A stretch of 62,430 nt of DNA from a bacterium (GTDB taxonomy: Bacteria; Patescibacteriota; Minisyncoccia; JAHIHE01; DAOWLE01): positions 1 to 62,430 of the forward strand of contig DAOWLE010000005.1 of assembly GCA_030643545.1 (NCBI GenBank), given 5' to 3'. Below, piece by piece: positions 11,944-50,492 of the stretch. The notes below the pieces were generated by a model, which made no database searches, was not told the DNA's origin, and saw only the letters and a program-made list of their open reading frames with translations. The position numbers and the translations under genes are program-made. Every line of letters begins with the position of its first letter. Positions within the stretch are counted from its first letter, which is position 1.

Positions 11944-12681
11944 TAATTTTATTTCTTCCCATATCTTTTGATGAATTGTTTCAGGCGGCAATAATCTTTC
12001 ATTTTCAAAACACTCAATCACTTTAAAATCTTTTGGAAATTCTTTCGCCGCCTCCAAATAAGAATTAAGAGCATCCTGTAAATGATTCAAATCTTTTTCA
12101 TGGATGTCTCTTTTTTTATTTCCTAAATACGCTTTTCTTTTTTTCTTTTTTTCTTTATCTGTTATTTTCGGAGATAATTTTCGCGATGATTCCGGGGAAG
12201 TTTTTAAAATAAAAGTTATATCTGGTTTTGGAATTTTAAAAATATCATACTCAAGATTATACAGCCATTTCAAATATTTTTTTCGTTCTCTTTTATTTTT
12301 AATCTTTCCGCCTTGATGTCCGATATTTGAAGCAATATATCTGTCTGAAACAACAATCTTTTTTTCGTTGAGCCATTTTTTTATTTTAAACGAAGCGTCA
12401 TATCTGTCGCAAGCGTAAAAAATTGAAGCTCTGTAAGGACCGATTTTTTCAGGAGTTCCGTATTTTCCATTTAAATATTCTTCCACAGGACCGGCGGATT
12501 TTGTTCCATATTGGGGAAAATCTATCGTCTTTGTATTAAATCCTTCTCTTTTCAAACGATGAATTAAAAGCTTTGTCTGGGTAGCTTTGCCTGAACCGTC
12601 AATTCCTTCAATAACAATAAACCCCGCACATAATTTTTTTATGTGCTGGGTGAATTTTCCTTTGTGTAAATTTTTATACAT
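11923..12681 (-). CDS. tmk: thymidylate kinase
   Basis: P-loop IEGIDGSGKAT; DRY(I/V) block. Confidence 0.9.
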   Translation of the reverse strand: MYKNLHKGKFTQHIKKLCAGFIVIEGIDGSGKATQTKLLIHRLKREGFNTKTIDFPQYGTKSAGPVEEYLNGKYGTPEKIGPYRASIFYACDRYDASFKIKKWLNEKKIVVSDRYIASNIGHQGGKIKNKRERKKYLKWLYNLEYDIFKIPKPDITFILKTSPESSRKLSPKITDKEKKKKRKAYLGNKKRDIHEKDLNHLQDALNSYLEAAKEFPKDFKVIECFENERLLPPETIHQKIWEEIKLLENFAV

Positions 12682-12688
12682 AATAATT

Positions 12689-13909
12689 TTAAAAACAATA
12701 TTTCATTTTCTGAAATTTTCTTCTAAACCGAATAACTTTTTTTTCAACTTCCTTAACATCTTTTCCGTCTATTACAATTTCTTTCATAAACCCGGCGATA
12801 ATTTTCATTTCTTTTTCTTTCATTCCAAATCTGGTCATTTCCTGAACTCCAATCCGCAGGCCTTTTGGATTTTGTGGATCTATTTTATCTTCTGGAATAA
12901 TATTTTTATTTAAAATAATATTTGCGTTTTCTAATTTTGTAGCGATTAAATTTCCGCCGCCGAATTTTTCCACATTAAGCAAAACCTGATGGCTTTTGGT
13001 AAATCCTTTTTCTTTTTCCAAAACATCAAAACCGAATTTATCAAGCTGCTTGGCTAACGCTTGAGCGTTTTTTATAATCTGAGAAACATATTGCTTTCCG
13101 AATTTTTTCATTTCCATTAAGGCAAAATAAAGCGCCGGCAAACGATGCAGATGATGATTGGATAAAACTCCCGGAAAAACTTTTGCTTGAATTTTCTTTT
13201 GCAAATCTTTTTCAATATTTCCCAGAATTATTCCGCCTTGCGGGCCGGGAAAAGTTTTGTGAGTGGAAGAAGTAATAATGTCAACTCCTTCTTTCAAGGG
13301 ATTTTGAAAAAAACCGGCGGTGATTAAGCCAAAAACATGCGCCGCGTCATAAATAATTTTCGTGTTTGTTTTTTGGCAGATTTTTTTCAATTCTTTTATC
13401 GGCTGTGGAAATAAAATCACCGACCCGCCAAGAACAATAAATTTTGGTTTTATTTTCAAAATTTGCTTTTTTGATTTTTCTAAATCAATTGATGAATTTT
13501 TAAATTCAATATGAAAAACTTTTAATCCCAAAATTCCCGCGGCTCCCGGTTCTTCGTGGGAAACATGAGAACCGCCATCAATTCCCAAGGTTAAAATTTT
13601 ATCGCCTTTTTTTGTTAAGGCGGAAAAAACCGCCATATTTGCCAAAGTTCCAGAAATCGGGCGAAGATCAACAAAGTTCGCTTTAAAATGTTTTTTAAAA
13701 ACATCCTCTGTTAAACTTTCTATTTGGTCAATATATTTCAAACCCTGATAATATCTTTTAAAAGGCAGGCCTTCGGCATAGCGGTGCATCAAATCAGAAA
13801 CATAAAGTTTTTCGCAAAAATCAGACATTACATTTTCCGAAGCAATTAAATTTATACAATTTTTCCGCCAGTCATTATGTTTTTTTAACAAAGATAAAAT
13901 TTTTTGCAT
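12689..13909 (-). CDS. glyA: serine hydroxymethyltransferase
   Basis: LIASEN start region and PLP-lysine block SSTHKTFPGPQGG. 406 aa. Confidence 0.95.
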   Translation of the reverse strand: MQKILSLLKKHNDWRKNCINLIASENVMSDFCEKLYVSDLMHRYAEGLPFKRYYQGLKYIDQIESLTEDVFKKHFKANFVDLRPISGTLANMAVFSALTKKGDKILTLGIDGGSHVSHEEPGAAGILGLKVFHIEFKNSSIDLEKSKKQILKIKPKFIVLGGSVILFPQPIKELKKICQKTNTKIIYDAAHVFGLITAGFFQNPLKEGVDIITSSTHKTFPGPQGGIILGNIEKDLQKKIQAKVFPGVLSNHHLHRLPALYFALMEMKKFGKQYVSQIIKNAQALAKQLDKFGFDVLEKEKGFTKSHQVLLNVEKFGGGNLIATKLENANIILNKNIIPEDKIDPQNPKGLRIGVQEMTRFGMKEKEMKIIAGFMKEIVIDGKDVKEVEKKVIRFRRKFQKMKYCF

Positions 13910-33399: not shown

Positions 33400-33706
33400 T
33401 TTTTACCTCACAAAATAGATCAGTTATATTGGATTTTATTTGATTTGAATTTAACCGCTGAAATAAAATTTTTTTAACAAAAAAGTATTGATTGTTAATT
33501 TTATAATTTTTCCATAACATTAATTTTGCGTTATCTTATAATTACTGCCTGTTTCTGCAAATAAATCTAATAAAACTAATCAAATTAAACTAATAATAAT
33601 TTACCGACTATTTTTAGTTTAACAAATATGTCAAGATTTGTCAAAACATTGCTGATGCCGGTAAAAAGATGAAATGTTTTTAAAAATAAAAAAACCTCGT
33701 CAGAAC

Positions 33707-33735
33707 TTGACAAAGCTTAAAAAAAATAGTATGGT
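33707..33735 (+). promoter_or_regulatory. candidate sigma70 promoter (TTGACA-17-TATGGT)
   Basis: Read directly. Would start a plus-strand RNA at ~33742, just before the structured core. Confidence 0.35.
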
Positions 33736-33737
33736 TG

Positions 33738-33878
33738 GGAGGCACTGATGCCTCCTGTTAATAATATTATATGAGGTCAGCGCCCCCCGGACCGCGATAT
33801 CAGTCTTCCTAGCCCGGGTGAGAGGCATGACCTCTGTATCTTTAGATGTCTTTAAATTAAAGGCACCTAAAGATACAG
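33738..33878. other. GC-rich structured non-coding core (three consecutive strong hairpins), class unknown
   Basis: GGAGGCA/TGCCTCC (33738-33755). GAGGTCA...TGACCTC enclosing CCCGG/CCGGG (33773-33834). CTGTATCTTTAG/CTAAAGATACAG (33834-33878). Confidence 0.4.
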
Positions 33879-34141
33879 AGGGTTCAGAAAACATTTTGAA
33901 TACCGTAGTCTTTGAACAGAAAAAATCTGTTCCTCCTTTTACCGTATAAACGTACTACTGAAATGTGCTGTTTTTGTTTTTCAGTACAAGTAATTTTTTT
34001 ATTTTTATTTTACTTTTTTTGTTTTTGTTTTTGTTAAGTACGATTTACTCAGTAAAAGGAAATTTCCCGCAAATAAATATCATTTGTGAAGAATTTTCTT
34101 CCACTTGAATTTCTTTTTTATATTTTCATCTTAACACTTTT

Positions 34142-34170
34142 AGTATATCACCTATTTTTCTGTTTGTCAA
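34142..34170 (-). promoter_or_regulatory. candidate sigma70 promoter (TTGACA-17-TATACT on minus strand)
   Basis: Read directly. Would drive a long minus-strand leader/ncRNA towards rny. Confidence 0.4.
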
Positions 34171-34221
34171 TACTAAGGTTTGAAATTCCGCTTATTTAAA
34201 AGGGAAAACGGGATTTATTTT

Positions 34222-34259
34222 AAAAAATAGCTCTTAAAATATTTTAAGGGCTGTTTTTT
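34222..34259. terminator. rpsA terminator hairpin (bidirectional form)
   Basis: AGCTCTTAAAAT|ATTTTAAGGGCT flanked by A6 and T6. Confidence 0.6.
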
Positions 34260-34287
34260 ATCCACACTTATTCACAAGTTATCCACT
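34258..34287 (+). promoter_or_regulatory. three tightly spaced DnaA boxes
   Basis: TTATCCACA (9/9), TTATTCACA (8/9), TTATCCACT (8/9), same orientation, 1-2 nt apart. Confidence 0.7.
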
Positions 34288-34288
34288 T

Positions 34289-35374
34289 TTAAGCCAAAGC
34301 AAGCCCTAATCTGTGTTCTTTTGGCTCAAAAGAAAGTATTTTAAATTTATATTCTTTATTTACTTCAAGCGATTCTCCTTTTTCTTCATCTTTTTTGATT
34401 TCAGAAATATGAACTAATCCGTGTACATATTCATCCAATTGGACAAAAGCGCCAAATTGGTTAATTTTAGTTATTTTACCCTCAACTTTTTGCCCGACTT
34501 TATATTTATCGCCTGCTTTTTCCCATGGATCTTTTTGCAAAGCCCTTAAACTTAATGAAATTTTTGATCCAGTGATATCAATAATTTTTACTTTAACTTT
34601 TTCGCCGACTTTAACAACATCATTAGGATTATCAATCAATTTCCAGTCCAATTCAGAAATATGAACTAACCCTTCCAAATCATCGCCAAATCCCACAAAA
34701 GCGCCAAAATCAACAATTCCTTTAATAACGCCTTCAACGACATCGCCGACCTTGAATTTACTAATACATTCTTTTGTTTTATCTTCTTCAACGGCTTTTT
34801 CTGAAAGGATCAGTTTTTCTCCCTTTTTGTCTATGTCAATAATTTTAACTTTAAACATTTGATTAATATAATTTCTAAGAATGCTTAAAATCTTGTCTCT
34901 GTCTCCGTTTTTTACTCGCGGATAATGCTGGCGCGTCAAATGGGAAACCGGCAAAAAACCAAATATGCCGTTTATTTCAACAATTAATCCGCCCCTGTTA
35001 GCGTCTAATATTTTTGTCGTAAGAATATCTCCGTTTTTCATATTATCTTTCAAGTTTTGCCAAACTTTATCATAAGACGCTTCCCGCAAAGAAAGCTCTA
35101 CATAACCGTCTTCATTTTCCTGTTCTAAAACAGTGGCGGTTATCTTATCGCCTATTTTTAAGTTTTGCGCGGTTCCCAGTCCGTCATTAAGTTCGCGAGC
35201 CATTACAATTCCCGCGCCAACCGGACCAATGTCTATTAAAAGATTATTTGTGCCGATTGACAAAACATTGCCTTCAATTTTTTCGCCGACTTTAGGCAGG
35301 CGAAAAAGATCCTTTGATTCATTAAAGGCCTTTTTCATTTGAGGCGATTTTTTATCGTCTGTTTTTATTGCCAT
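34289..35374 (-). CDS. rpsA: 30S ribosomal protein S1 (four S1 domains)
   Basis: Four repeats of the S1/OB pattern G..V.G.V..I..FGAFV. Confidence 0.75.
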   Translation of the reverse strand: MAIKTDDKKSPQMKKAFNESKDLFRLPKVGEKIEGNVLSIGTNNLLIDIGPVGAGIVMARELNDGLGTAQNLKIGDKITATVLEQENEDGYVELSLREASYDKVWQNLKDNMKNGDILTTKILDANRGGLIVEINGIFGFLPVSHLTRQHYPRVKNGDRDKILSILRNYINQMFKVKIIDIDKKGEKLILSEKAVEEDKTKECISKFKVGDVVEGVIKGIVDFGAFVGFGDDLEGLVHISELDWKLIDNPNDVVKVGEKVKVKIIDITGSKISLSLRALQKDPWEKAGDKYKVGQKVEGKITKINQFGAFVQLDEYVHGLVHISEIKKDEEKGESLEVNKEYKFKILSFEPKEHRLGLALA

Positions 35375-35500: not shown

Positions 35501-35529
35501 TTGACAAACCTTTTATTTTATGCTACAAT
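35501..35529 (+). promoter_or_regulatory. near-consensus promoter P1 (TTGACA-17-TACAAT with TG extension)
   Basis: cTTGACAaaccttttattttaTGcTACAATg. Confidence 0.6.
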
Positions 35530-35570
35530 GTAAGATAAAATAAAAAGATAAATAAATTTAGGAATTGGAC

Positions 35571-35599
35571 TTGACAAGATTTTCAATCTGTGCTATAGT
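35571..35599 (+). promoter_or_regulatory. near-consensus promoter P2 (TTGACA-17-TATAGT with TG extension)
   Basis: cTTGACAagattttcaatctgTGcTATAGTg. About 55 bp around it duplicate P1, including the first ~20 transcribed nt (GTARRATAAAATAAAA). Confidence 0.6.
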
Positions 35600-35703
35600 G
35601 TAGAATAAAATAAAAGACAAAAACTTCTTTTAAAAAATAATTTAGAAATATAAAGAAGAGAGAGCTTTATATATTTATGTAATTATTGTTTTTATAATTA
35701 ATT

Positions 35704-35772
35704 ATAGGCGGCTCTCTCCCGCCCGCAATAATTCCCAAAAGGGATTTAGGCGGGCAAAGAGCCGCCTATTTT
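35704..35772 (+). terminator. long interrupted hairpin plus T-rich tail (terminator or end of an sRNA)
   Basis: ATAGGCGGCTCT-ctc-CCGCC ... GGCGG-gca-AAGAGCCGCCTAT followed by TTTAATTT. Confidence 0.5.
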
Positions 35773-36013
35773 AATTTAGTACTTTGTCAGAGAGAAATAT
35801 GGAGAGGATACCCCGAAGCAATTTTTTGGAAATGCTACAGGGCAAGGAAAAATTTATCCTGAATTAGTGGAGCCGGTGGAAACAAATGCCGCGGGCAAAA
35901 ATTATAAAAAAGATTTTTGCCGATACTGCCTTAATTTTGAAATAAAATAATTCTTCTTCATTTTTCTCTTTAACAAAAAAAAGAGATAGCACATTTAAAA
36001 ACCCCAATTAGAT

Positions 36014-36275
36014 ATGCACTATCTAAACAGGGTAAAAAAGGGAAAGAGAGAAAAATTGCTTCATTGCTAAATAGAAATATTCTCCTAATGAATTAAGGTT
36101 CTAAAATATTTTGGAATTTTGGTTCATTATGGAGAATGGTTTCTCTGTAATAGTTGCAGATTTGTCTATCAAAACAAGGGTGGTCTTATAAGACCATAGG
36201 AGAATGAAAAAAAATGGTAGACGGAAATGTAGTAAGCCTGGTCGGGGGCGAAACCGGTAGTAGTATTCGCGGGCG
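36014..36275 (+). repeat. cassette 5' leader repeat, copy 1 (extends ~60 nt into ORF A)
   Basis: Aligns with 37641..37885, roughly 85-90% identical by eye with a few indels. Confidence 0.85.
36079..36213 (+). promoter_or_regulatory. candidate translational RNA switch, copy 1
   Basis: AUUCUCCUA (36079-87) can pair with decoy UUCAUUAUGGAGAAU (36123-37) or with SD UAGGAGAAU (36197-205). Hairpin TGGTCTTATAAGACCA (36181-96) abuts the SD. Confidence 0.5.
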
Positions 36276-36660
36276 AATGGATTTTGCTCGCATGGAGGCG
36301 GAGAACTTTAAACTTGATCCGCAAGAAATGGAGCGGGTTGAAAAATTGCGAGAGGAAACATCCGGAGTGTATAGTGTTGTTCGATACCCACTTCAAACAA
36401 AGTGGGGAGTAGTCACAGTTGTCAAAATGGAAGCGTATAATGCTTTCGGAGATTACACCGATTATTGGGTGGAATCCGAAGACAAAAACGCTTTAAGAGA
36501 TATTCTGGAGTGGCAAGCAAAGAAGCAGTTAGTAACAAAACCGCAAGAGATTGAAAAGGCCCGTGAGTATATTCCATTGAATCCAGAAAACGGTATGTGG
36601 TATGTATCGTTTTTATGGAAAGGCGAATTCGAGAAATTTGTTGAGGAGGTGAGCGAATAA
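36214..36660 (+). CDS. hypothetical protein A (cassette 1)
   Basis: 148 aa. AGGAGA 10 nt upstream. N-terminal ~19 aa homologous to ORF C. No motif recognised. Confidence 0.55.
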   Translation: MVDGNVVSLVGGETGSSIRGRMDFARMEAENFKLDPQEMERVEKLREETSGVYSVVRYPLQTKWGVVTVVKMEAYNAFGDYTDYWVESEDKNALRDILEWQAKKQLVTKPQEIEKAREYIPLNPENGMWYVSFLWKGEFEKFVEEVSE

Positions 36661-36661
36661 G

Positions 36662-37423
36662 ATGTCGCTCGTAGAGATGTATAGCTCTTACCCCTCCGAG
36701 ATAAAGAGAAATCTGAACTCATCTCGGAGTTCAGGAAACTATTATTTCCTGATGGGAGAAACGATAGACCGCTGGGGACTAAACAATGCCCCTTATGAGC
36801 CGACATTTTCAGTGCGAAGTAAGAAATACTACCGCATTGAAATTCGGAGACGGCTGTTGCGAGAGTTGTATATCGCCGAAATACAGGGGCTTCCCGTCCC
36901 AGTGCCTCGGACAGGTGACGCTGAAGAATTCATCAGGGAGTTCAAAGATCCGGTGATGCTCGCAGTCGGCAACTGCGCTGTAGGACCGAGCGATCTGCGC
37001 GAAGGACTTCATCGGTTTGATGAGGTTTTCGTTTTCGATGCTACGGAAACGGAAGAGGACTGGAGAACAAGGCACGATGCTATGGAAACAGCGAAAGCTG
37101 CGATGGAGTGGATAGGTTCTGAAGATTCGCAAGGCGGATTGTCGTGGACATACGGAAAATTGCGAGAAGGCTCACTGGCACACCAGAAACTTGAACAAAA
37201 AAGGGACGGAGTTCTCTTTAATCACGAAATCGTGTTCGAGTTTGAGGATGAGTGTCCTCTCGGCGTTCAGTGCGACAATGAAGTACTGTTCTGTAACGCT
37301 TCGGGGAAAAGAATTGAATTCGTGATCTATTCGTATGATCACGATACTGTTCAGCGCCGTCTCACACCAGGTCAAGCAATTTTATTCAGTCATCCTTTCC
37401 CGGATGATGGGGAGGTGGACTGA
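36662..37423 (+). CDS. hypothetical protein B (cassette 1)
   Basis: 253 aa. GAGGAGG RBS inside the end of ORF A, 1-nt gap (coupled). No motif recognised. Confidence 0.55.
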   Translation: MSLVEMYSSYPSEIKRNLNSSRSSGNYYFLMGETIDRWGLNNAPYEPTFSVRSKKYYRIEIRRRLLRELYIAEIQGLPVPVPRTGDAEEFIREFKDPVMLAVGNCAVGPSDLREGLHRFDEVFVFDATETEEDWRTRHDAMETAKAAMEWIGSEDSQGGLSWTYGKLREGSLAHQKLEQKRDGVLFNHEIVFEFEDECPLGVQCDNEVLFCNASGKRIEFVIYSYDHDTVQRRLTPGQAILFSHPFPDDGEVD

Positions 37424-37439
37424 GTAAAGATAGTGGAAT

Positions 37440-37615
37440 AAAAACCCGCAGGAGCAAAAACTTCTCGGGTTGAGGTTTTTTCTTTTCCTTTTGAGAAGAG
37501 AAACCAATAAAAAAGCACATTAAAGATAAAAAAATGAGGAAGGAATAGCATTCGTTTCTTCCTCCTCTATTTTTAAGTCCGCAAATATTTTGTGAATTTA
37601 AAAATGCTCTGAACC
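37440..37615 (+). repeat. cassette 3' trailer repeat, copy 1
   Basis: Aligns with 38287..38455. Three hairpins. A partial third copy lies at ~35960..36000. Confidence 0.8.
37536..37574 (+). terminator. intrinsic terminator of cassette 1
   Basis: GAGGAAGGAA-tagcattcgt-TTCTTCCTCCTC followed by TATTTTT. Confidence 0.65.
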
Positions 37616-37640
37616 GTGAAAGGTTGAGAGTAAAATTAAA

Positions 37641-37885
37641 ATGCACTTTTAAAGGGGAAAGAGAAATAATTGCTTCATTGCTGATTAAAATTATTCTCCT
37701 AATGAATTAAGATTCTAAAATATTTTTTGGAATTTTGGTTCATTATGGAGAATTCCGTAATAGTTGCAAGATTTGTCTATCGAAACAAGGGTGGGTCGCT
37801 TAGATCCATAGGAGAAAAAAAGAAAAATGATAGATGAAAAAACAAACCCGACCGGGGGTAAAACCGGAGAAGTAAGTATTGACAA
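37641..37885 (+). repeat. cassette 5' leader repeat, copy 2 (extends ~60 nt into ORF C)
   Basis: See 36014..36275. Confidence 0.85.
37693..37826 (+). promoter_or_regulatory. candidate translational RNA switch, copy 2
   Basis: AUUCUCCUA (37693-701), decoy (37739-53), SD UAGGAGAA (37809-16). SD-adjacent hairpin TGGGTC-gctta-GATCCA (37792-808) keeps pairing through different bases than copy 1. Confidence 0.5.
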
Positions 37886-38288
37886 GCTACTTAAAGTAGC
37901 TGTTGAAGCAAATAAGGGAGAGAAAGAGAAGTTTGATGCAGGACTTAGCGGAATTAAGACCTGCATGAAAATAATAGCCGCGACGACAAATGACTATTAT
38001 CAAAAGACTGACTTTTACACGGAAAGTAGAATCCATGCAAAAGTTAATGTGAATAGTCTTAAGCAACCATCTTTTGGATATTATCCCAAGGGAATTGTTG
38101 ACGGAGATCTTTCTCTTACAAGTAGAGACGGAAAAGTAATCTTCGTCTTTCAAGAGGGAAGTCGCGGAAATGCAAAAAAGGCATGCTGGGGGATTCCAGT
38201 CGAAAAGCTGGATTGCATCCTTGCTTGCAATTTCCTAAAATTTAAAGAGATGATTATAGAATATCTCCAAATTTTGGGAAATCAGTAA
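37827..38288 (+). CDS. hypothetical protein C (cassette 2)
   Basis: 153 aa. AGGAGA 11 nt upstream. Shares M-[VI]-D...GG-[EK]-TG-..-SI with ORF A and then diverges. Confidence 0.5.
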   Translation: MIDEKTNPTGGKTGEVSIDKLLKVAVEANKGEKEKFDAGLSGIKTCMKIIAATTNDYYQKTDFYTESRIHAKVNVNSLKQPSFGYYPKGIVDGDLSLTSRDGKVIFVFQEGSRGNAKKACWGIPVEKLDCILACNFLKFKEMIIEYLQILGNQ

Positions 38289-38455
38289 AACCCGCAGGGT
38301 TCACCCCTCGATTAAGGTTTTCTTCTTTCCTCTTTGGAAAGAGAAACCAATAATAGCACATTAAATTAAAAAAATGAGGAAGGAAAAAGAGCACTCTCTT
38401 TTCCTTCCTCCTCTATTTTTAAGTTTATAAATTTTATTTTGTTGATTTAAAAATA
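38287..38455 (+). repeat. cassette 3' trailer repeat, copy 2
   Basis: See 37440..37615. Confidence 0.8.
38376..38420 (+). terminator. intrinsic terminator of cassette 2
   Basis: GAGGAAGGAAAAGAG-cac-TCTCTTTTCCTTCCTC followed by CTCTATTTTT. Confidence 0.7.
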
Positions 38456-38493
38456 CCCCGCATTAAATAATGCGAGGTGAAATAAAGAAAGAA

Positions 38494-38619
38494 GCCAGAA
38501 GCGCTTTTAGTCCCGCTCTTTTTAATCTCTCTCTGCTTCCATTAAAGAAAATAAGGTAAATTTATTTTATCAAAATTTTTTAACGGAAATTAAAAGGGCG
38601 GGGCAGAAGCGCTTTTGGC
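38494..38619. repeat. 22-23-nt inverted (and direct) repeat pair around an ~80-nt AT-rich spacer
   Basis: GCCAGAAGCGCTTTTAGTCCCGC ... GCGGGGCAGAAGCGCTTTTGGC. The core AAGCGCTT is itself palindromic. Confidence 0.6.
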
Positions 38620-38625
38620 TTTTTT

Positions 38626-38660
38626 AAAAAAAGGCGAGGATATATATCCTCGCCTTTTTT
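38626..38660. terminator. bidirectional terminator (rpsR operon / cassette array)
   Basis: AAAAAAA-GGCGAGGATA|TATCCTCGCC-TTTTTT. Confidence 0.8.
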
Positions 38661-38682
38661 AAGTTGAAATAATAAAATAGGC

Positions 38683-38895
38683 CTATCTCGAAACAAACGG
38701 CAAAAGAGCCATTCGCCGGGCGCGTTTGATAGCTTGAGAAAGTTTTCGCTGATGTTTTGCGCAAGTGCCTGTTCTCCTCACCGGCAGAATTTTCGCGCGC
38801 GGGCTGATAAATTTCCTCAAAAGCGAAACATTTTTATAATCTATATCTTCAATTTTCTCCTGGCAAAAAAAGCAGGATCTTTTTATTTGTTGCAT
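38683..38895 (-). CDS. rpsR: 30S ribosomal protein S18
   Basis: CFFC..IDYKN..LL.KFIS.RAKI.P.R.TG.CAKHQR. Confidence 0.92.
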
Positions 38896-49415: not shown

Positions 49416-50390
49416 ATGAATAACTCGTTGAAAAAAAATATTAACTCAACTTTTAAATTACTATTAGGGAGTGTTTTAATAATGGGGCTAAGCGCTGCCG
49501 GAACAAATTCTTTTGGCAAAAATCAAGAGAATAAAGAAAATTTATCCATTCCGATTATTATTGAAGAAAACGGGCTTCAATTTAATTTAAAAACAGACAA
49601 AAAAAATATTATGAATGTTTTAACTGATTTAGATATCCATCTCAATCAAAATGATATTTTATTTCCGGCCATAGAAACATCAATCAGCGCCGGAACAAAA
49701 ATCATCATCAAACGAGCATTAGAAATAAGCATTGAAGCTGATGGAGAAATTATAAAAACTTTTACAGCCGTTTTGAATGTTAGAGATGTTTTGAAAGAAA
49801 AAAATATTATTTTAAATGAGAAAGACAAAACGCTTCCCGGTTTGGATGAGTCAATCAGCAATAATTTAGAAATTAAAATTATCAGAGTAAAACAAAACAC
49901 AATTACTGAAACAGTTTTAATTGATCCGCCGATTGAAATCCGCAAAGATAAATCTATGATTCTTGGAAAAACAAAAATCATTGAGCCGGGTAAAAGCGGC
50001 GAAAAGGAACAAACTTTTTCAATTACTTATGAGAACGGCCGGGAAGTTGAAAGAAAACTTGTTTCTGAAAAAATAATTTTTCAGCCGCAGCAAAAAATTA
50101 TTGTTGAAGGAGAAAAAATTTCCATTGGAAATGTTCAAATTGGACAAGCTTCTTGGTATGCTAAAGGATTGTGGAATCCGCAGGCGTTAACCGCAGCAAG
50201 CAATACTTTTCCAAAAAAAACTTACCTTAGAGTGACAAATTTAGAAGACAGCAAACAGGTAATTGTTAAAGTTAATGACACCGGCGCTTTTGGCTTGCCA
50301 AGAGTGATTGACCTTTCAAGCGGCGCTTTTAAAAAACTTGCTCCGCTTTCTGCCGGAATAATTTCAGTAAAAGTTGAAGAAATATTATAA
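49416..50390 (+). CDS. G5-domain / RlpA-like (DPBB) cell-wall protein
   Basis: Signal peptide. G5-like segment (..GKTKIIEPGKSGEKE..ITYENG..). C-terminal GQASWY...VKVNDTG barrel motif. Confidence 0.6.
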   Translation: MNNSLKKNINSTFKLLLGSVLIMGLSAAGTNSFGKNQENKENLSIPIIIEENGLQFNLKTDKKNIMNVLTDLDIHLNQNDILFPAIETSISAGTKIIIKRALEISIEADGEIIKTFTAVLNVRDVLKEKNIILNEKDKTLPGLDESISNNLEIKIIRVKQNTITETVLIDPPIEIRKDKSMILGKTKIIEPGKSGEKEQTFSITYENGREVERKLVSEKIIFQPQQKIIVEGEKISIGNVQIGQASWYAKGLWNPQALTAASNTFPKKTYLRVTNLEDSKQVIVKVNDTGAFGLPRVIDLSSGAFKKLAPLSAGIISVKVEEIL

Positions 50391-50410
50391 GTGGTATAAT
50401 TATTTTTACA

Positions 50411-50448
50411 TTTACGAAGGCGACAATATATATTGTCGCCTTCGTAAA
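50411..50448. repeat. 38-nt perfect palindrome of the GAAGGCGACA...TGTCGCCTTC family
   Basis: TTTACGAAGGCGACAATA-TA-TATTGTCGCCTTCGTAAA, intergenic. Confidence 0.9.
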
Positions 50449-50492
50449 CTTTAATTTATTTTATTTGTTGATAAATATGGCGCGATTATAAA

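Follow-up and report, generated by a model that had tools for sequence, protein, structure and literature searches.

In replacement-type flexible genomic islands, strain-specific gene content occupies one syntenic position between conserved flanks, and the mRNAs of hok-type type I toxins are subject to fold-back inhibition. In T4-type phages, promoter-early stem-loop (PeSL) cassettes have been described (Arbiol et al. 2010, PMC2839356; Comeau et al. 2014, PMC4122927), and the internal proteins of T-even phages, encoded at a polymorphic locus, form a diverse set with a short conserved N-terminal capsid targeting sequence, those of T4 countering host defence (PMC3012670). Here we describe a locus in a 62,430-nucleotide stretch of DNA from a Patescibacteriota bacterium (contig DAOWLE010000005.1; hereafter the window), in which cassettes with conserved ends and unrelated coding bodies lie between the ribosomal-protein genes rpsA and rpsR, and compare it with these systems and with integrons.

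The space between rpsA (34289-35374, minus strand) and rpsR (38683-38895, minus strand) measures 3.3 kb and contains exclusively plus-strand features. Its borders, given in a preliminary description of this DNA as rpsA and an rpsF-ssb-rpsR operon, were borne out by Pfam, which on the same scaffold matched S1 (rpsA) at one side and SSB and S6 at the other; the 70-aa open reading frame (ORF) at 38683-38895 is the counterpart of a gene called Ribosomal_S18 in the syntenic locus of a relative (L049). Two plus-strand cassettes occupy the interval. The first contains the bodies of ORF A (148 aa, 36214-36660) and of ORF B (253 aa, 36662-37423), which is coupled to A, its ATG lying 1 nt beyond the stop of A; the second contains that of ORF C (153 aa, 37827-38288). 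The bodies of the two cassettes are unrelated. They are framed by leaders (leader 1, 36037-36213; leader 2, 37651-37826) and by trailers (trailer 1 with its junction, 37424-37650; trailer 2, 38286-38455), and the proposal of two leaders, put at roughly 85-90% identity by eye, and of two trailers bracketing different cargo holds. The leader cores (36037-36290 versus 37651-37905) are 85% identical (205/240), and the trailers (37424-37615 versus 38289-38455) 86% (133/155). A 25-mer of the long leader hairpin occurs exactly twice in the window and not once in 100 shuffles, and a 21-mer of the trailer is likewise found exactly twice, with none in shuffles. The claim that A and C share their first ~19 codons and then diverge is equally sound, since these codons are in the same frame and BLASTP similarity is confined to the N-terminus.

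The same position was compared in four relatives, three of which (L049, L054 and L056) were found via the 90% clusters of RecA, RNase Y and ComM, and the fourth (L007) via the single homologue of C, which is present on contigs L007 and L008 from another study. All four have the same conserved upstream flank, and in three of them rpsA is 91-92% identical in nucleotides, with pS between 0.26 and 0.32. Different unrelated cargo occupies the slot in these close relatives. In L007, the same promoter and flank are followed by one leader, an orthologue of C (C'), one trailer and rpsR, the A/B cassette being missing. L049, a syntenic contig of 66.6 kb, has one cassette with a product of 162 aa (D), which matches A in the ~25 N-terminal residues only and has no match to C. 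In L056 (GCA_030590545.1), the flank is kept, and a leader and a trailer, both of a second type (type 2), surround a product of 138 aa (E). The contig of L054 ends inside the leader hairpin. In a more distant relative (L053) the leader is not present, L050-L052 and L055 stop short of the slot, and exact look-ups of RpsR and S1 returned the same sample only. L053 also carries an insertion sequence/transposase-like remnant upstream of rpsA (1-1420) and DDE transposase fragments at 12622-13388. The slot thus holds A+B and C in the window, C' in L007, D in L049 and E in L056, and the hypervariability by swappable bodies that the preliminary description had read from the window is supported by the comparison of relatives, rather than a simple recent duplication.

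Adjacent units with common ends might nevertheless be taken for the product of a recent tandem duplication, in which a single gene unit was copied locally and its coding parts then diverged. Such an origin is very unlikely and already contradicted. The bodies have no detectable similarity, B belongs to a separate phage-type family, and the relatives have other bodies in the same frame. Moreover, leaders 1 and 2 and those of L007 and L049 are roughly equidistant (83-90%), the distance between leaders 1 and 2 being that of either to the leaders of other genomes, and the two are therefore not a recent duplication.

The possibility that the arrangement is a chimeric assembly across the repeat, against which the preliminary description had cautioned, is hardly credible. 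Contigs of the window's sample in Logan do cover the locus piecewise, L002 stopping within ORF B and L004 at the end of trailer 2, and L054 terminates within the leader. However, L002 spans rpsA, leader 1 and A, and L004 spans the 3' end of B, trailer 1, leader 2, C and trailer 2, while the ENA scaffold of the same sample (L001/L003) shows the identical arrangement, so that the junctions are reproduced by two other same-sample assemblies. Both outer junctions are, in addition, corroborated by the single-cassette alleles of other samples. The BioSample of the window is mentioned in a South China Sea cold-seep data set (PMC9357000).

The leader is also reused with other cargo at unlinked sites. 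When the junction was sought elsewhere, as the preliminary description had suggested, a 25-mer of the hairpin was found on two JGI metagenome contigs, L043 and L044, neither linked to the slot. On L043, a leader of the window's type (type 1) is followed by three ORFs, one of 113 aa, one of 67 aa and a third that is DHH-like (a Pfam match of E 1e-4, which falls short of the cut-off), and upstream of this cassette lies a 69-75-aa ORF with a leader and a trailer of the L056 type (type 2). Tandem arrays are therefore present in at least two genomes, as L043 has a type-2 cassette followed by a type-1 cassette. The G+C content of L043 is 43%, versus 34% in the window, and its hairpin is identical to the window copies at 56-59 of 60-62 positions. 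On L044, the leader heads another unrelated ORF, with a ParE/RelE-type toxin gene alongside on the opposite strand.

We consider it probable, if by no means certain, that the rpsA-rpsR interval is a hypervariable accessory-gene slot, in which self-contained, translationally gated cassettes are exchanged by recombination in conserved flanks. A cassette consists of a structured leader, a start with a short shared N-terminus, a variable body (sometimes an operon) and a stop-bearing trailer, set in a purine/pyrimidine bracket. Homologous recombination in the flanks, that is, in several hundred nt upstream, the leader, the trailer and rpsR, would add, remove and replace the bodies; no integrase is seen among the annotated neighbours, and attC core sites are absent. 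The exchange would resemble the promoter/terminator-mediated modular shuffling of T4-type phages, and circular or transformed DNA may take part. Because the exchange points lie within the leader, the first codons and the stop, any incoming body would be expressed and regulated alike. The leader would hold cargo translation off by default, with codons 1-4 paired in type 1 and the Shine-Dalgarno sequence (SD) paired in type 2, and an anti-SD (UUCUCCU) would alternate between the hairpin base and the SD. The structure may be opened, for example, when an RNase III-type enzyme processes the invariant hairpin, by a trans factor or by temperature, and complementarity between the 5' and 3' ends would shut the mRNA into a panhandle. 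The cargo may be conflict-related (phage-host or cell-cell interaction), as the phage type of B and the fast turnover of the remaining, orphan cargo suggest.

Folding, pair counts and a covariance model (R1) indicate that a strand-specific, covarying RNA structure covers the translation start. Leader 1 (R1 score 198 bits) is composed of a purine tract (36037-36049), a 27-bp hairpin (36079-36137), an anti-start strand (36162-36170), a small hairpin (36180-36197) and the SD AGGAG (36198-36202). Leader 2 (184.6 bits) likewise has the long hairpin (37693-37753), a small hairpin with a stem sequence unlike that of leader 1, and an SD. The minimum-free-energy folds predict one common architecture in all five type-1 copies, with the start region paired. 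In the predicted start helix, UUGUCUAUC (36162-36170) pairs with the G of the start codon and codons 2-4 of ORF A (36216-36224). Over six leaders, a small sample that consists partly of close kin, 96.9% of the cells pair, versus 42-54% in slid-partner controls. Compensatory changes are found at 4/7 pairs of the small hairpin (helix 3), and the changes in the start helix (helix 2) are one-sided, each of them compatible with pairing. The fold z-score of the leaders is -5.7.

The long hairpin is identical at 59/60 positions between leaders 1 and 2. With RNA energy parameters it amounts to -25 to -36 kcal/mol on the plus strand and -14 to -20 kcal/mol on the minus strand. It has 4-6 G.U pairs, and every mismatch is a G.U on the coding strand. 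As these pairs make the sense strand far more stable, the hairpin appears to be an RNA rather than a DNA site. In an alternative structure given by RNAalifold, UAUUCUCCU at the base of the hairpin (the anti-SD) pairs with the SD, and by this modelling the leader can adopt an anti-SD/anti-anti-SD arrangement. The type-2 leader is predicted to form one long hairpin, the 3' arm of which is the SD, so that the SD would be buried. In Rfam 15, the leader reaches the gathering score of no family, and at E values up to 10 only chance matches to miRNA-type hairpins were obtained. A structured covarying 5' untranslated region (UTR) and a platform occluding the SD and start, which are the marks of riboswitch-like elements, are both predicted in the leader, and it may be regarded as a candidate RNA motif that is well supported, has a predicted expression platform and belongs to no Rfam family. 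No extra copies were detected by R1 in the window or in L005, the contig of a relative of B described below; its matches at L043 1624-1761 (26 bits) and at 50340-50465 of the window (23 bits) are generic hairpins and were rejected as leaders.

The N-terminal similarity of the cargo is best seen against this structure. A has homology to C over its first ~19 codons and to D over its first ~25, and most copies have in common an M-V/I-D-E/G start, which coincides with the RNA helix. A GG.TG..SI motif is restricted to A, C and C'. When eight N-termini were aligned, one column was invariant, and in all but the closest copies similarity past ~5 residues is weak. As the start helix covers codons 2-4, the conserved 'MVDE' protein start is largely the 3' strand of an RNA helix, and the shared N-terminus, at least in codons 2-4, is probably owed largely to pairing with the leader RNA rather than to a conserved peptide. 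Reading of L044 shows the same GGUAGA shifted by two codons. Between C and C', codons 1-20 have dN 0.07 and dS 0.42 (nonsynonymous and synonymous divergence), which hints that they may be under peptide-level constraint. By eye, the first two ORFs of L043 (634-1157, minus strand) begin with similar G/A-rich stretches, PVVGAGSGTKEASP and EAVAGAADDRETKEAFP. Repetition of the N-terminal tag in the second of them is visible by eye, and BLASTP gives it no support; if true, the resemblance would favour a role of the tag at the protein level.

Each trailer contains three hairpins, the final one being a predicted intrinsic terminator (a G+C-rich stem of 11-17 bp and a T-run). In trailer 1, these are a hairpin at 37443-37471, a pyrimidine/purine hairpin at 37474-37505 and the terminator at 37536-37564 with its T-run, and a conserved junction hairpin follows (GCTCTGAACC..GGTTGAGAG, 37607-37633), which is present also in L044 and L056. 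Trailer 2 has the pyrimidine/purine hairpin and a terminator at 38368-38418 with a T-run. The nearest sequence to trailer 1 is the L049 trailer (91%), and trailer 2 is orthologous to the L007 trailer (about 88-90%). The conserved trailers of C, C' and D open with the TAA that terminates the ORF (TAA-AA(A)CCCGCAGG). All cassettes carry a 5'-terminal purine tract (AAAGGGAAAGAGA) and, just past the stop, a pyrimidine tract complementary to it. In the type-2 cassettes (L056 and L043) these are perfect 13-nt inverted repeats (AAAGGGAAAGAGA / TCTCTTTCCCTTT), and in type 1 they are imperfect. For five cassettes, the predicted 5'/3' duplexes range from -15 to -25 kcal/mol, versus -8 to -11 kcal/mol in shuffles.

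These ends bear on the view that only a cis-regulatory leader is shared, i.e., that a lineage-specific riboregulator controls a regulon of unrelated genes and that the relatives differ by ordinary gene turnover. A conserved structured 5' UTR with its 3' part overlapping the SD and start is what such a regulator would present, and unrelated genes at unlinked places are indeed preceded by the leader. However, conservation is not limited to the leader but extends to the 3' trailer, the stop codon and the 5'/3' complementarity, the replacement extends exactly from the shared first codons to the shared stop within one syntenic slot, and the 62 kb hold just two copies, which are adjacent. A shared regulator of this kind is accordingly judged improbable as the whole explanation.

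The same brackets might instead mark site-specific or transposon-like mobility, in which the inverted repeats or the invariant hairpin are recognised by a recombinase or transposase encoded elsewhere, in the manner of integrons, of clusters of attC sites lacking integron-integrases (CALINs) or of miniature inverted-repeat transposable elements (MITEs). The inverted repeats AAAGGGAAAGAGA / TCTCTTTCCCTTT bracket the cassettes, perfectly over 13 nt in type 2 and imperfectly in type 1. The 60-nt hairpin sequence is conserved (53-60 of 60-62) among otherwise diverged copies, including that on the contig of 43% G+C. The leader occurs in non-syntenic contexts, once beside a ParE/RelE toxin module, and tandem arrays are found in two genomes (the window and L043). 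Yet the hypothesis of attC sites fails, because a regular-expression scan of both strands of 35776-38700 returned neither GTTRRRY nor RYYYAAC..GTTRRRY core sites. The neighbours annotated by Pfam, which span -4.6 kb to +10 kb, include no integrase or transposase, the remaining genome being unsearched; in both respects the preliminary description, which had seen no integrase or attC-like site, was correct. As for MITEs, terminal inverted repeats are present, and the covariance model finds two leader copies, adjacent to each other, in 62 kb. That every mismatch of the hairpin is a coding-strand G.U speaks for RNA, no target-site duplication was seen on reading the flanks in L043 and L056, and the joints, in frame with shared start and stop codons, fit homologous exchange better than cut-and-paste. 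Mobility of this sort is therefore unlikely, and exchange of the cassettes by homologous recombination remains the explanation that we prefer.

Several observations weigh against this preferred explanation. The leader was not found in 185,579 GTDB species genomes, IMG/VR, INPHARED or PLSDB, which may mean that the system is restricted to a narrow lineage. The leader copies known are just six to seven, three of them closely related; the long hairpin is invariant across copies and offers no covariation; and no regulator or ligand could be tied to the leader. The plus strand of 37565-37690 contains no promoter site of at least 9/12, and the junction promoters are weak or unclear; by eye, TTGAGA-17-TTTTAA may be seen in the window and TTGTCA-16-TAAAAT in L043. 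Strong promoters are found solely upstream, at 35501 and 35571. Since the L054 leader directly abuts the flank, an upstream promoter may transcribe the cassette through the terminator-like hairpin described below. Lastly, AlphaFold2 models of B and C from 2-row alignments had predicted local distance difference test (pLDDT) scores of 34 and 50; structure prediction, as proposed in the preliminary description, was thus carried out for these two, with models that were unusable and for which a fold search would have been meaningless.

The searches with leader and trailer sequence that underlie the first of these points may be specified further. Exact-word scans of IMG/VR (three scans) and of the GTDB species genomes gave chance matches of 17-30 nt or none, the matches of two 18-mer scans being vetted by blastn and the 17-mer matches by the covariance model. 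No match was given by blastn against INPHARED and PLSDB or, for the cargo, by tblastn of B against INPHARED.

The cargo genes are evidently real, as judged from the ratio dN/dS of C and from the conservation of B. Between C and C' the amino acid identity is 82%, with dS 0.56 and dN/dS 0.16, i.e., purifying selection. B is 46% identical to its homologue P0002 in a full-length alignment (44% in the search). The B family is small, with 26 representative clusters of ~250-290-aa proteins from phage-like and viral contigs, such as the viral contig L045 and the phage- or plasmid-like contig L005. Its members align from residue 1 of the 253-aa form of B; public gene calls use an internal Met (223 aa, P0001). 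Eight of the 18 aligned members match phrog_6092, to which no function is assigned, and a sequence profile search of the PDB with the family gave no match. The body of A is an orphan, with no homologue of the ORF among 5.8 billion proteins. The preliminary description had recognised no domain in A, B or C, in agreement with zero matches in Pfam, NCBIfam and PADLOC. With PHROGs added and the search extended to A-E and the cargo of L043 and L044, the results were empty except for phrog_6092 in the B family and the weak DHH match of L043. L005 (1-12166), which carries the closest homologue of B, encodes an HNH protein, a type IV CRISPR-Cas set (Csf1, Csf3 and RAMP), PAPS-reductase/DUF3440 and ParB-like genes and a NUMOD3 protein, and is phage- or plasmid-like. 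A 48-aa ORF upstream of the B homologue on this contig was considered as a relative of A and rejected, as BLASTP gives no alignment.

The raised G+C content that the preliminary description had noted for B is real (48.6%, versus 33.8% in the whole window) and extends to A (43.8%). The G+C content at third codon positions is 0.43 in A and 0.50 in B, compared with 0.29-0.39 in housekeeping genes. It is not raised in C, D and E.

The region upstream of the slot contains two tandem near-consensus sigma-70-like promoters on the plus strand (35501-35599), each with 11/12 matches and TG-extended, which are part of a 46-nt direct repeat: TTGACA-17-TACAAT at 35501-35529 and TTGACA-17-TATAGT at 35571-35599. 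The alignment of relatives shows two promoter copies in the window and a single one in the relatives. They are followed by a conserved unit of ~170 nt (35600-35778, plus strand), which is 94% identical to L007, has no Rfam match and ends in a terminator-like hairpin with a T-run (35695-35778). The outer stem of this hairpin is kept in five genomes, and the inner part is replaced in each. The unit may be either a small RNA or an attenuator preceding the slot. Upstream of the terminator-like hairpin lies an invariant hairpin, AUAUAAAG-AAGAGAGAG-CUUUAUAU, which may be able to form an antiterminator by pairing with the terminator's 5' arm.

The remainder of the flank (35779-36036, plus strand) is conserved and non-coding. 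It contains a hairpin at 35894-35921, the loop of which differs among genomes with the stem unchanged, and a trailer-like motif, consisting of a pyrimidine/purine hairpin (35965-35991) and AGCACATTTAAA. The preliminary description had seen in this motif a degenerate third trailer that follows a 22-codon remnant ORF, and had inferred at least three cassettes. The motif is present; a third cassette is not supported. The segment 35781-35975 is 96% identical in L007, and 35779-35975 is almost invariant across the five-genome alignment; the 600-700-nt non-coding upstream flank as a whole is 89-94% identical in the four relatives, and the small ORFs of the flank, including the 22-codon ORF, are broken by indels in relatives. 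For these reasons the segment is not a decaying cassette, and the supposed third trailer belongs to a strongly conserved non-coding flank. It is noteworthy that ~600 nt of upstream non-coding DNA are better conserved than the synonymous sites of rpsA and therefore hold more functional elements.

At the other end of the slot, the segment between trailer 2 and rpsR (38480-38660) contains a long imperfect inverted repeat, AGAAGCGCTTTTAGTCCCGCTC ... GGGCGGGGCAGAAGCGCTTTTGG, which L049 and L056 have as well. The same segment has a perfect palindrome of 17+17 nt (38627-38660), which is probably a bidirectional terminator. The Pfam-annotated neighbours comprise RNase Y, S1, SSB, S6, a ComM-like ATPase, RecA, an M16 peptidase, an AI-2E transporter and carotenoid genes. 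A gene-poor stretch of 890 nt (33400-34288) separates RNase Y from rpsA. It contains a promoter-like TTGACA...TATGGT, is rich in G+C at 33735-33930 and has a near-perfect palindrome of 51 nt at 33831-33881; Rfam gave no match for it. In the relative L054, this interval carries a HEPN/nucleotidyltransferase pair and small ORFs, and it is therefore a second variable spot.

The locus is a compact and well-delimited case of orphan-gene shuffling in an uncultured lineage. Its unusually invariant hairpin calls for a specific partner, and if the cargo genes serve phage defence, anti-defence or host interaction, the leader would be a cheap handle for searching metagenomes. A bolder view, which we regard as doubtful, is that the slot is a natural 'plug-in' expression site and represents a new class of integrase-free cassettes, in which an undescribed RNA module, made up of leader, first codons, stop and trailer and bracketed by inverted repeats, would carry arbitrary cargo between phages and the cells of the lineage. 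All cargo would then be under one common switch (the invariant 27-bp hairpin, read by a specific protein or nuclease, start-codon occlusion and 5'/3' closure of the mRNA), and the short N-terminus held in common would direct the proteins to the same fate, which might be export, packaging or activation by proteolysis.

Chromosomal integrons and CALINs resemble the locus in that a recurring structured element stands between tandem ORFs that are unrelated and for the most part defy annotation, the content varies between close relatives, and toxin-antitoxin genes are nearby in one case. In contrast to integrons, the locus lacks attC core sites and the R/L box layout, and its annotated neighbours include no integrase. 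Whereas the attC hairpin is bottom-strand single-stranded DNA with extrahelical bases, the hairpin here is favoured on the sense strand as RNA, and each cassette brings its own leader, start, stop and terminator.

With flexible genomic islands the locus shares alternative unrelated gene sets between core genes, and flanks that permit homologous replacement. It differs in that the units are of 0.5-1.5 kb with conserved ends reaching into the coding sequence, and in that the cargo is accompanied by a specific structured RNA, which is found outside the slot too. As in the hok mRNAs, long-range pairing of the 5' and 3' ends (predicted here) is combined with occlusion of the translation start, suggesting an mRNA that would be inert until processed. 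Unlike hok, however, the cargo consists of proteins of 70-250 aa rather than small hydrophobic peptides, no antisense RNA was identified, and there is no sequence relationship.

For diverse proteins with a short common N-terminus, the internal proteins of T-even phages provide by analogy the nearest described logic, which does not imply membership. In both cases, highly diverse proteins have only a short N-terminal sequence in common. The locus differs in having no phage head, protease or packaging context; moreover, codons 2-4 are explained here by RNA pairing, and beyond ~5 residues the similarity is weak except among the closest copies.

The nearest described mechanism, again by analogy and not by membership, would be the modular shuffling at PeSL elements. 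There, as here, composite intergenic sequences (in PeSL, a terminator and a promoter) recur around small orphan genes, and indels and replacements between close relatives end in the repeated junctions, as seen between the window and L007, L049 and L056. PeSL shuffling proceeds by homologous recombination with no dedicated recombinase, which is how we infer the exchange to occur here, and in both systems the variable genes are mostly of no known function. The stem-loop terminators that define PeSL have their equivalent in the predicted terminators of the trailers. The locus differs in lying in a cellular-looking chromosome among ribosomal-protein genes, with synteny kept in the 66.6-kb contig of a relative, rather than in a phage hyperplastic region, and its junction is far longer (~400 nt), bringing with it a translational leader, the start and first codons, and the stop codon.

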